Of a stretch of DNA of 64,000 nucleotides, positions 183 through 4,127 are shown one piece after another. The notes below the pieces were generated by a model. That model saw only the letters and a program-made list of their open reading frames with translations. It ran no database searches and was not told the origin of the DNA. Position 1 is the first letter of the stretch. Each line of letters opens with the position of its first letter. The position numbers were made by a program, and so were the translations under genes. The stretch is from a virus (Duplodnaviria > Caudoviricetes): IMG/VR virus record IMGVR_UViG_3300032327_000460, positions 1-64,000 of that record. One strand, given 5' to 3'.

Positions 183-794
183 ATGAAATATTTTTATCTA
201 TACCAGATCACTAATCTAGTCAATGGCAAGATTTATATAGGTGTTCATCAAACTTCTTCTATGGAAGATGGGTATATGGGCTCCGGTAAGGTTATATTAA
301 GAGCATATGAAAAATATGGAATTGATAATTTTACTAAGGTGGTTTTAGAAACATTTGATAATTCAGAATCTATGTTTGCTAGAGAAAAAGAAGTAGTGAC
401 TGATGAGTTTCTTTTAAGAGAAGACACTTACAATCTTAGGCGCGGTGGGTTTGGTGGTTTTGACTATATAAATAAATCAGGTATGCCTAAGATGTTAGGT
501 AAGAAACATAGTCAAGAAACTAAGGATAGATTATCAGAGGTATTGATTGAAAGACGTACTAATGGTACTGCACCTAAAATGACCGAAGAAGTTCGTAAGA
601 ATATTTCAGAGGCTAAATTAGGCACAACGTATAAATCAAGACCATCTAAGTCAGTGGAGCATAAGGAAAAACTTAGGGCCGCTAACCTAGGTAAACAACA
701 TAATTTAATTACTTGCCCACAGTGTGGAAAACAGGGCGGAGAAAGGGCAATTAAAAGATGGCACAGAATATGTGCGGGTGTAACTCAGTGGTAG
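183..794 (+). CDS. Free-standing GIY-YIG homing endonuclease (Seg-like) with NUMOD3 and C-terminal Zn-finger-like motif
   Basis: YLYQITNLVNGKIYIGVH (GIY-YIG), MLGKKHSQETKDRLS (NUMOD3), CPQCGK..RWH..C; stop codon lies inside tRNA-Gly. Confidence 0.9.
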   Translation: MKYFYLYQITNLVNGKIYIGVHQTSSMEDGYMGSGKVILRAYEKYGIDNFTKVVLETFDNSESMFAREKEVVTDEFLLREDTYNLRRGGFGGFDYINKSGMPKMLGKKHSQETKDRLSEVLIERRTNGTAPKMTEEVRKNISEAKLGTTYKSRPSKSVEHKEKLRAANLGKQHNLITCPQCGKQGGERAIKRWHRICAGVTQW

Positions 795-927: not shown

Positions 928-956
928 TTGACGAATAAATAATTATCTGTTATAAT
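928..956 (+). promoter_or_regulatory. sigma70-type promoter
   Basis: TTGACG-17 nt-TATAAT. Confidence 0.8.
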
Positions 957-1189: not shown

Positions 1190-1263
1190 GGGGGATTGAT
1201 GTAATGGTAGCCTGGGACCTTTGCAAGGTCTTCGTAACAGTTCGATTCTGTTATTCTCCACCA
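1190..1263 (+). tRNA. tRNA-Ala(TGC)
   Basis: loop TTTGCAA, G3:U70 pair and A73 (Ala identity elements), CCA end. Confidence 0.9.
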
Positions 1264-1267
1264 AGAA

Positions 1268-1474
1268 ACCCGGTTTACTGTTTTACGTCATATAAACAGC
1301 GTCCCTGTAACGATAGACCAGGGGGTACACTAGGACCTGACCTTACAGTCCCTGTTGGGGGATACTGAAAATTGCCTGGGGTGAGGAACGCTAACCTTTA
1401 CCAAAAGAAGAAATACGTGGACAGTGTAACAACTCAGAGATTGGGCTTATGTGGTGTAAGTAGCAGTCTCACTT
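1268..1474 (+). ncRNA. Candidate multi-helix structured ncRNA of unknown family
   Basis: GC-richer non-coding stretch between tRNAs with at least 6 complementary helices. Confidence 0.55.
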
Positions 1475-1544
1475 TATAAGTGTATTTCACACCCAGCTAA
1501 TAAGACTGGCTCTGTAAGTGAAAAAGGAATACATTTATAAATTA

Positions 1545-1618
1545 CGCGGGTAGGGTTGGTCACCACACCGGTCTCATAAGCCAGGTGCATCGGCAGTTCG
1601 AATCTGTCACCCGCATCA
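1545..1618 (+). tRNA. tRNA-Met(CAT), initiator-like, atypical D arm
   Basis: CGCGGGT/ACCCGCA (C1:A72 mismatch), loop CTCATAA, normal T arm; CCA not cleanly encoded. Confidence 0.75.
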
Positions 1619-2413: not shown

Positions 2414-2635
2414 ATGACTGAAAGCAGAGTAAGATATACAAGTGAAGATGCGGCCATTATGGCTGGCAATCGATTTGATTTAGTTCTTATTGCCTCACAA
2501 AGGGTAAGAGAGTTAAAACGTGGATTTAAGCCAAAATTAATCACTAAAGCAGGACACACTGTTACTGCACTAGAAGAAGTTGAAGCTGGATTAGTAGGTA
2601 GAGAATACTTAAAAAGAATTGGTAGAAGTAGATAA
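2414..2635 (+). CDS. rpoZ: RNA polymerase omega subunit homolog
   Basis: GNRFDLVLIASQRVREL..TVTALEEVEAGLV matches the RpoZ signature. Confidence 0.88.
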   Translation: MTESRVRYTSEDAAIMAGNRFDLVLIASQRVRELKRGFKPKLITKAGHTVTALEEVEAGLVGREYLKRIGRSR

Positions 2636-3033: not shown

Positions 3034-3063
3034 AAAAATAGACCCTTCGGGGTCTATTTTTTT
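3034..3063. terminator. Intrinsic (bidirectional) terminator
   Basis: AAAAATAGACCC-TTCG-GGGTCTATTTTTTT. Confidence 0.9.
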
Positions 3064-3130: not shown

Positions 3131-3691
3131 ATGACGGCTAGTTGGGAACAAAATAAACAAAAAAGCAAGTATCATTTTGATAATTTTAAAAATGATCCTC
3201 AAGTTGACAAAGTAATTAGTTTGGGCAAGATAGTTGCTAATTACGCAGACGATGTTAAACATATAATATCTAAAGCAAATTCTGTACCTTCCCGATTAAA
3301 AATGATTAGTGAGTTGTTTTCATTAAACAACTGCATAGAAAAAATACATGTACAAATGCCCGGAGAGGTAGATACATTGCAATTATCTAACTTAGAGAAA
3401 TTAGCACCCGATAGTCCCTGGACTATTATGCATGTTCAAATAGAATTGACAGATTATGAACAAGGACATTTTTCTAGTTATGGAAATCACCTACATACAC
3501 AATGGCATGCTGGAGATGTAATAACATTTGATTGGCAAAACTTACCATATTCCACTGCCAATGCCGGACATAACCCTAGAGTTACATTACAGTTAACCGG
3601 AGTAGTCACTGAAAAAACAAATGACTTTTTATCTAGACTAAAAAGATTTGGTAGCCATCAATTAGAGTTAAAAAATGAATCTTGGTTCTAA
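3131..3691 (+). CDS. Cupin/2OG-Fe(II) oxygenase-like protein, metal ligands apparently degenerate
   Basis: QMPGE..HVQIELTD..W..GDVITFDW..STANAG..PRVTLQLTG double-stranded beta-helix pattern. Confidence 0.55.
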   Translation: MTASWEQNKQKSKYHFDNFKNDPQVDKVISLGKIVANYADDVKHIISKANSVPSRLKMISELFSLNNCIEKIHVQMPGEVDTLQLSNLEKLAPDSPWTIMHVQIELTDYEQGHFSSYGNHLHTQWHAGDVITFDWQNLPYSTANAGHNPRVTLQLTGVVTEKTNDFLSRLKRFGSHQLELKNESWF

Positions 3692-4127
3692 ACGAATATT
3701 AATAATGGGATTGCCAGGCGCGGGCAAAACATATCTAGCACAGCATATAGTAGACTATTTACAAGCAGAAAAAAAGCGTGTAGGATGGGTTAATGCAGAT
3801 GATGTTCGTAAAAAGTATGATGACTGGGATTTTAGCACAGAGGGACGCATAAGGCAAAGTTTGCGTATGCGTGAACTAGCAGATAGTATGACAGATGTAG
3901 ATTATGTTATCTGTGATTTTGTTGCACCATTAGTTGAGATGCGTACCAACTTCAACGCAGATTTTACAATATGGGTAGACACAATCCGTGAAAGTAGATT
4001 TGAAGATACAAATAAAATATTTGTACCGCCGGAGAAATATGATTTTAGAATTGTTGAACAGAATGCAAATAAATGGGGAGAATATATTGCACTAAATATA
4101 GTTAACACCCTTAGGACCGTAACTTAG
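3675..4127 (+). CDS. Adenylylsulfate-kinase-like P-loop kinase
   Basis: GLPGAGKT, NADDVR..WDFSTEGRIRQ, DFVAP. Confidence 0.8.
   Translation: MNLGSKRILIMGLPGAGKTYLAQHIVDYLQAEKKRVGWVNADDVRKKYDDWDFSTEGRIRQSLRMRELADSMTDVDYVICDFVAPLVEMRTNFNADFTIWVDTIRESRFEDTNKIFVPPEKYDFRIVEQNANKWGEYIALNIVNTLRTVT

Follow-up and report, generated by a model that had tools for sequence, protein, structure and literature searches.

Comparative sequence analysis identifies positions 1268 to 1473 on the plus strand of the window (the whole stretch of viral DNA that was analysed, 64,000 nucleotides) as a gene for a non-coding RNA of about 206 nt, for which there are no expression data. The RNA belongs to a family that is absent from Rfam 15 and, as far as such comparisons reach, uncatalogued. 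The initial annotation, made from the letters of this stretch alone, had proposed a candidate novel phage ncRNA at this place, to be refuted by a match to a known Rfam family or by a lack of conservation. Neither refutation applies: Rfam 15 gives no match on the element even at E<=10, and the family is conserved, with covariation, in at least about 240 viral contigs.

The limits and character of the element are close to those first described, namely a structured RNA of about 210 nt at 1264-1474, distinct from tRNA and embedded in a tRNA array. The block that is conserved among relatives (1268..1473, plus strand) has nearly identical bounds, with tRNA-Ala (1190-1263) on its 5′ side and, on its 3′ side, a tRNA-like element and then tRNA-Pro. 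The copy in the window is a member of the canonical subfamily and of sequence subtype A, and scores 221 bits with our covariance model R1. The GC-richer island reported earlier was also recovered, with a G+C content of 0.45-0.52 against about 0.30-0.40 in the flanks.

The absence of a credible open reading frame was borne out as well. The short ORFs that cross the region are only 24-72 aa long and unsupported, and they either enter a tRNA or run across helices. No conserved reading frame or start codon was found across the relatives, in which helix covariation alters the residues that would be encoded. Indels of 1 and 2 nt occur within the most conserved 3′ part of the RNA (between GGAC and the stop-like triplet of hairpin H6), and the sole possible start position reads AUG, GUG, ACG or GUA depending on the family member. 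Judged by these comparisons, the element is non-coding. The RNA strand is taken to be the plus strand because invariant G-U pairs (e.g., 1445-1461 and 1450-1456) can only pair there, and become C-A mismatches on the opposite strand. The single-sequence fold was unremarkable, since the minimum free energy of 1264-1545 (z = -0.89) was no better than that of shuffled sequences. Thermodynamics alone is therefore insufficient, and the proof of structure has to be comparative.

Covariation among the relatives reveals a predicted fold of four tandem H-type pseudoknots (PK-A to PK-D), a hairpin (H5) and a two-tier 3′ hairpin (H6). All seven helices named in the initial annotation exist in the sequence and are maintained through compensatory changes, while the pseudoknots and hairpin H5 had been overlooked. 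Stems S1a and S2a, S1b and S2b, and S1c and S2c cross each other, and therefore make three H-type pseudoknots.

Stem 1 of PK-A (1271..1287, plus strand, as are all elements of the fold) consists of C1271-G1287, G1272-C1286 and U1274-A1285, with G1273 bulged. Within subtype B its pairs exchange between GC and UA and among GC, UG, AU and UA, and the variants of the stem include CGGGC/GCCCG, CGUG/CACG, CGUU/AACG and CAGU/ACUG. Stem 2 (1278..1299) joins 1278-1283 with 1294-1299 (CTGTTT/AAACAG); it is 96% paired, with double changes in three pairs, and its pairs 1279-1298, 1281-1296 and 1280-1297 rank among the top eight of a blind mutual information (MI) scan. In PK-B, stem 1 (1300..1312) pairs 1300-1302 with 1310-1312 and covaries within subtype B, and its pair 1300-1312 emerges in the blind MI scan though it is absent from the model behind the alignment. 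Stem 2 of PK-B (1303..1323), which pairs 1303-1307 with 1319-1323 ((T)CCCTG/CAGGG(G)), contains the highest MI pairs overall, and reads GAUU/GAUC, GACU/GGUC or GAAU/GUUC in the second subfamily.

Stem 1 of PK-C (1324..1342) pairs 1324-1326 with 1340-1342 in 100% of the sequences, with exchanges of GC75/AU5 and UA73/CG7. Its stem 2 (1330..1379), formed by 1330-1334 and 1375-1379 ((C)TAGG/CCTG(G)), displays two-sided changes in 5/5 pairs. This stem encloses an inserted hairpin, CAGTCCC at 1346-1352 with GGG..ACTG at 1359-1367, which is supported by covariation in subtype B and by the MI scan. Stem 1 of PK-D (1380..1402) is itself a hairpin, in which 1380-1386 pairs with 1395-1402 (GGTGAGG/CCTTTACC); it is 98% and 93% paired and includes double changes. 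In stem 2 (1388..1418) the loop of this hairpin, A1388 C1389 G1390, pairs with C1416 G1417 U1418, located just 5′ of the GGAC motif. The two sides change together across the family, in matching sets such as ACG/CGU, AUAAC/GUUAU, UGAUA/UAUCA, ACACA/UGUGU and AUCUC/GAGAU. When the duplex of each loop with its own partner was compared with those obtained after swapping partners, the own partner was better in 31/36 sequence classes (Wilcoxon p = 3e-8).

The segment 1419..1437 comprises the near-invariant GGAC, hairpin H5 with its GUAAC loop, and CAG. The pairs of H5 are A1423-U1434, G1424-C1433 and U1425-A1432, and the two outer ones are formed in 80/80 sequences (AU68/GC12 and GC77/UA2/GU1). An alternative register, shifted by one base, is compatible with 95.6%. 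From the alignment, H5 is best read as A1423-U1434 plus G1424-C1433 followed by non-canonical pairs. Hairpin H6 (1437..1470) has an outer stem, 1437-1443/1464-1470 (GAGATTG/CAGTCTC), and an inner stem, 1445-1450/1456-1461 (GCTTAT/GTAAGT), which together are 99.8% paired, with double changes in six pairs. An internal loop, G1444 opposite A1462 G1463, separates the two tiers, and in the canonical subfamily the apical loop is GUGGU (1451-1455). The GGAC motif, the GUAAC loop and the G/AG internal loop of H6 are unpaired and near-invariant in both subfamilies. Within the inner stem of H6, the pairs 1447-1448/1458-1459 are restricted to UC/GA (46), CU/AG (38) and UU/AA (8), with no CC/GG (0), so that the 3′ side invariably reads UGA, UAG or UAA. 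This restriction is not accounted for by any conserved frame.

The statistical support for these helices was obtained from two alignments. The first, A1, contained 80 representatives of less than 90% identity, drawn from the matches listed. Here S1c, S2c, S1d, H5 and H6 had 96.9% of cells paired against 86.5% after shuffling, and none of the 500 shuffles was as high. Two-sided changes affected 17/29 pairs (310 cells), and controls in which the helices were slid along the alignment were 37-45% paired. The 5′ pseudoknots were evaluated in a second alignment, A4, of 30 subtype-B sequences; PK-A and PK-B were tested within this subtype because the global MAFFT alignment across subtypes was too poor in that region. 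In A4, S1a, S2a, S1b, S2b, S1c and the inserted hairpin were 91.9% paired against 82.4% shuffled (0/500), with double changes in 12/24 pairs and slid controls at 31-49%. The blind scan (MI-APC, 160 distinct sequences) placed all of its top-ranked pairs inside the proposed helices, and recovered S1b and S2d, neither of which was in the model behind the alignment. It must be considered that the retrieval patterns force invariance at the bases that they specify, and that E-values from covariance model R1 are rough.

A further contact, PK-E, probably ties the 5′ end of the RNA to the apical loop of H6: A1268 C1269 C1270 (1268..1270, plus strand) would pair with G1453 G1454 U1455, over 3 bp only. 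Counted together with this probable contact, the inferred fold has five pseudoknots in a closed chain. Among 160 distinct sequences, ACC faces GGU in 54 and UCC faces GGA in another 54. CCC/GGU follows with 22 (ACCCCG variants with a one-base slip), while UCU/GGA (6) and ACU/GGU (3) involve wobble pairs, UCU/AGA occurs in 3 and ACU/AGU in 1. Two sequences with UCC/GGU have one mismatch, and ACC never coincides with GGA (0 of the 160). The loop contains UGG in 79/83 copies of the second subfamily, and was not part of the retrieval pattern. The switch from A-U to U-A counts as one event, because it coincides with the split between the subfamilies. Meanwhile, the switch from C-G to U-A is found in four sequences of two lineages, with wobble intermediates present. 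If ACC pairs with the H6 loop, the chain either closes upon itself or links head to tail to another copy, and covariation does not distinguish pairing within one molecule from pairing between two.

The relatives of this RNA are numerous among uncultured viruses. An exact 22-mer of the inner hairpin is present in 12 IMG/VR contigs, and blastn revealed that positions 1259-1477 of the window are conserved as one block, at 80-92% identity, between differing flanks. In one related locus (L011), a tRNA-Ala directly adjoins the pair of tRNA-like sequence and tRNA-Pro, and the element is found 4 kb away. A degenerate pattern of the 3′ hairpin retrieved at least 119 IMG/VR contigs with canonical copies (121 copies, 92 of them distinct, among the matches listed). 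Covariance model R1, which was built on 26 subtype-A members, recovered all sequence subtypes and also divergent second copies. A pattern specific to these second copies matched at least 120 further IMG/VR contigs (84 distinct copies among the matches listed).

Going by these sequences, the family consists of two paralogous subfamilies, both of which can share one genome. The H6 loop is GUGGU in the canonical subfamily and YRUGGAAA in the second, or D-type. Examples of D-type copies are L067 14241-14453, L121 6741-6955, L099 4806-5021 and L072 2181-2394, with others in the further contigs L149-L240. D-type copies are often flanked by tRNAs on both sides, Glu or Tyr upstream and Asp or Tyr downstream. 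The features that define the family, all of which are met by the window, are PK-A to PK-D, H5, H6 with its G/AG internal loop and UGG-containing apical loop, and a 5′ NCC matched to GGN in that loop.

The hosts of this RNA gene are uncultured phages whose genomes measure about 350 kb and contain the gene once or twice. It is present as a single copy in each of four genomes of 343-355 kb (at least 99% complete). In a 285-kb record both subfamilies are represented, by one copy each, and 2.4 kb separate the two. The phage from which the window derives is distant from cultured ones, with few PHROG matches and a DNA ligase that is at most 34% identical to that of any GenBank phage. Searches of GenBank phages by blastn with three subtypes returned no match. 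Among 185,579 genomes of prokaryotic species there were seven pattern matches, and the element occurs in only one of them, a contig of 558 bp assigned to a Paceibacterota MAG; the other six contain no element according to R1 and were discarded as chance matches. At gathering thresholds, Rfam 15 found only tRNAs in the whole window. The more permissive search (E<=10) covered 850-1720 and was likewise blank on the element, as was Rfam on the element in seven related loci. Full-text literature yielded no description of this RNA, though partial overlap with one of the unnamed motifs of an earlier collection (PMC10690425) is not excluded. That 2023 survey of structured RNAs in IMG/VR reported motifs of 29-151 nt only (PMC10690425).

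The genomic setting of the RNA is an array of tRNA genes, all on the plus strand: tRNA-Gly (774-848), tRNA-Leu (1038-1114), tRNA-Ala(UGC) with an encoded CCA (1190..1263), tRNA-Pro (1625-1701), tRNA-Val (2079-2154) and a second tRNA-Gly (2316-2389). The 3′ end of tRNA-Ala lies 4 nt before the RNA. Between the RNA and tRNA-Pro there is a weak tRNA-like sequence (1545-1616, plus strand) that scores 18.6 bits with the Rfam tRNA model and was missed by ARAGORN. Its anticodon loop contains CAU, its T arm (GGCAG/UUCGAAU/CUGUC) is good and an acceptor stem is present, but it lacks a normal D arm and has an over-long anticodon stem; it is about 80-88% identical in several related loci. Across the family, the 12 nt upstream contain the end of a same-strand tRNA in 42/86 canonical (49%) and 45/74 D-type (61%) copies, and the 12 nt downstream contain the start of one in 12/86 (14%) and 51/74 (69%), respectively. 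The identities of the flanking tRNAs are many (Thr, Ala, Asn, Gly, Leu, Ser, Glu, Tyr, Asp, Met and others), and for some copies the available sequence shows no tRNA up to 500 nt away. Adjacency to tRNAs of so many identities implies that the RNA occupies a tRNA slot.

Upstream of tRNA-Leu there is a promoter-like site (928..956, plus strand; TTGACG, 17 nt, TATAAT, with TG), which has 11/12 matches and rests on consensus matching only. This site is the likely start of the transcript that would carry the RNA. A strong intrinsic-terminator-like hairpin (3039-3063, plus strand; 7-bp stem, UUCG loop, 7 T) probably ends the operon of tRNAs and an omega-like gene. With these two signals, one transcript could span from tRNA-Leu to the omega-like gene. 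That gene is an ORF of 73 aa (2414-2635, plus strand) resembling RNA polymerase omega/Rpb6 (PF01192, 36.8 bits against a cut-off of 26). To our knowledge, it is already unusual for a phage to encode an omega subunit. Omega/Rpb6-like proteins are also the commonest protein neighbours of the RNA within 3 kb, in 65/127 loci and always on the same strand.

Other recurrent neighbours are IF-1, 2OG-Fe(II) oxygenases, dual-specificity phosphatases and proteins with DUF2828 and DUF7788, the last encoded within 3 kb in 21/127 loci. An IF-1 homologue (PF01176, 66.6 bits) lies within about 2 kb of the RNA at L052 1799-2014, and seven other loci also have one. No gene for a consistently co-occurring partner protein was found: DUF2828 occurs in one of five large genomes, and omega is merely frequent. 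Long AU-rich hairpins occupy the spacers just 5′ of tRNA starts at 951-1035 and 1475-1539 (plus strand), the latter beginning directly after the 3′ end of the RNA; such spacer hairpins may be processing sites. The array is preceded by a GIY-YIG homing endonuclease ORF (SegE-like, NUMOD3; 183-794, plus strand), the 3′ end of which overlaps the start of tRNA-Gly at 774. Near the tRNA operon there is also a P-loop kinase of 150 aa (APS-kinase/KTI12-like; 3675-4127, plus strand), which may be polynucleotide- or tRNA-related. A separate tmRNA of the permuted, two-piece type (RF04321, 107-136 bits) is present in 5/5 large related genomes (G001-G005, the contigs of L064, L068, L077, L078 and L099), and also in L051 (13-295).

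The element could instead be a divergent or partial version of a known RNA (a piece of tmRNA, RNase P RNA, Y RNA, T-box or 6S RNA) or a short coding gene, a reading that is largely refuted and to which we attach next to no weight. The initial annotation could not assign the element to tmRNA, RNase P, 6S or a riboswitch, and this agrees with the blank Rfam 15 search and the tmRNA-negative result of ARAGORN. The element resembles tmRNA in having four successive pseudoknots, then an A-rich stretch and a hairpin whose loop includes UAA; tmRNA likewise has about four pseudoknots arranged as a ring, and is also encoded in tRNA regions of phages. But the element lacks an acceptor stem, a T arm, a CCA and a conserved tag frame, and its ring is probably closed by a 3-bp contact between end and loop, whereas the ring of tmRNA is closed by helix 2 and the tRNA-like domain. 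No tmRNA-family model of Rfam matched the element, the T-arm motif is absent from 1268-1473, and ARAGORN found no tmRNA in the window. A tmRNA-like tag (A-rich linker, GAC..., and UGA/UAG/UAA in H6) was rejected given an unconserved frame and start and the separate permuted tmRNA that these phages already have. The coding alternative likewise has neither a conserved frame nor a start codon.

The 5′ AACCCGGYUUA of some members resembles the CR-V/P4 region of RNase P RNA. No Rfam match to RNase P RNA was found at E<=10, and this string is stem 1 of PK-A, which covaries and is replaced in many members. The UGG loop of H6 is reminiscent of CCA-binding loops, as in a T-box with UGGN, but there is no Rfam match, and the CCA-binding reading is displaced because the UGG covaries with the RNA's own 5′ trinucleotide. 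Y RNAs were also considered. YrlA, the partner of Ro60/Rsr, is similar in being a ncRNA that is linked to tRNA biology and occurs in phages too, and the layout of the DUF2828 and DUF7788 proteins presumably resembles the TROVE plus vWA arrangement of Ro60. In contrast to YrlA, the element has no 5′/3′ Ro-binding stem and no tRNA-like domain; its ends form no stem, and the YrlA model matches only a tRNA in L095 (24.5 bits). TROVE is absent from the record of the window, and DUF2828 is found in only 1/5 large RNA-carrying genomes, so a Ro/Y-RNA pair with the DUF2828 protein was rejected.

The small stable RNAs of phage T4, rnaC and rnaD (species 1 and 2), follow directly after a tRNA in a phage cluster, as the element does, and both clusters contain a seg-type GIY-YIG endonuclease (segB in T4, the SegE-like ORF 183-794 in the window). 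The T4 RNAs measure 119 and 139 nt, and rnaC ends in a tRNA-like T arm, whereas the element is pseudoknotted and has no tRNA-like part. R1, run with filters off over T4 69500-72500, returned a best score of 4.8 bits, outside rnaC/rnaD, and homology was rejected. A ToxI-like type III antitoxin was also ruled out: there is no tandem repeat in 1150-1650, the sequences of the four pseudoknots are not alike, and the ORFs that were scanned beside the element matched neither a toxin nor an endoribonuclease.

We propose, with a probability of roughly 0.55, that the element is a stable trans-acting RNA that is released by tRNA processing and acts on an unknown partner. The processing and the trans action are inferred from position alone, and data on expression, end mapping and binding are lacking. 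Following this model, transcription from the promoter-like site (928-956) would yield the RNA together with the tRNAs. It would then be excised by the nucleases that mature tRNAs, with RNase P cutting at the downstream tRNA and either RNase E or 3′ trimming acting behind the CCA of the upstream one. Pseudoknot stacking and a sequestered 5′ end would make the molecule compact and nuclease-resistant. It could then act in trans, offering GGAC, the GUAAC loop and the internal loop G/AG of H6 to a conserved partner, which would most likely belong to the machinery of translation, tRNA or RNA turnover, its identity being unknown. A stronger version would make the RNA an effector in its own right, either as a new class of ribozyme or as a ring or cage built of RNA only through the contact of 5′ end and loop, with host translation, tRNA or RNA decay as its target; this is possible but in our judgement unlikely.

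Alternatively, the element could work only in cis, as a roadblock or insulator of the tRNA polycistron without any function as a free RNA. It would halt exonucleases or RNase E scanning, or order the processing, and thereby protect the neighbouring tRNAs or time their maturation. In favour of this, the element shares the strand of the tRNAs in every case, mostly at a few nt from them, and its tandem pseudoknots and sequestered 5′ end match nuclease-resistant folds. Flaviviral xrRNAs are knotted RNA folds of this resistant kind. Consecutive, abutting H-type pseudoknots able to form a stacked rod also occur in the upstream pseudoknot domain of TMV and in the xrRNA and dumbbell elements of flavivirus 3′ UTRs, and such folds are compact, nuclease-resistant and bind host factors. 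These are cis elements of the RNA genomes of eukaryotic viruses, whereas ours is a discrete gene of a DNA phage, and there is no sequence relation between them. Furthermore, a purely local role is hard to reconcile with neighbouring tRNAs that vary widely and are sometimes missing, and with only one or two copies per array of many tRNAs. The near-invariant unpaired GGAC, GUAAC and G/AG of both subfamilies also exceed what a roadblock needs, and we consider cis action alone to be improbable, though not negligible.

Catalysis deserves consideration too, as self-cleavage at the 5′ edge, which would free the trailer of the upstream tRNA, or as action on tRNA precursors. In size, in its five pseudoknots and in the number of invariant residues left unpaired, the RNA falls within the range of glmS and RNase P-class ribozymes, and the probable tertiary contact would bury its 5′ end immediately behind the 3′ end of a tRNA. 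Yet many copies have no tRNA directly upstream, no ribozyme family of Rfam 15 matches, and no candidate feature of an active site was identified. In the absence of catalysis data this alternative is neither supported nor excluded, and we think it quite unlikely. More doubtful still is the joining of copies head to tail through ACC/GGU into RNA-only rings or cages, an idea that overlaps with the trans-acting reading. The covariation between the 5′ trinucleotide and the H6 loop fits an intermolecular contact equally well, and a precedent exists in ROOL and GOLLD, pseudoknot-rich RNAs of unknown function that are encoded by phages or prophages, often near tRNA islands, and form homo-oligomeric cages with no known protein partner (PMC12286853). 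But the contact has only 3 bp, and at 206 nt the element is 3-4 times smaller than ROOL (~580 nt) and GOLLD (>800 nt). There is no similarity to either in sequence or to their models in Rfam, and membership in these families was rejected on these grounds and on size.

Taken as a trans-acting RNA or otherwise, the element adds to a long-standing puzzle. Phage tRNA clusters have long been known to carry extra stable RNAs with unsolved roles, such as rnaC/rnaD of T4, ROOL and GOLLD. The family described here is abundant, with two paralogous subfamilies in at least about 240 viral contigs, and its self-closing fold of five pseudoknots, as predicted, is unusually intricate and well determined by covariation. 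At about 206 nt, the RNA is small enough for chemical probing, crystallography and cryo-EM. It offers a testable object for the role of non-tRNA RNAs in the translation-related gene islands of giant phages, which here also encode RNA polymerase omega, IF-1 and a permuted tmRNA. RNA family databases should include this family, as these regions will otherwise stay annotated as empty. If the effector reading were true, the RNA would be a small and tractable cousin, in kind but not in sequence, of ROOL and GOLLD or of the tmRNA ring.
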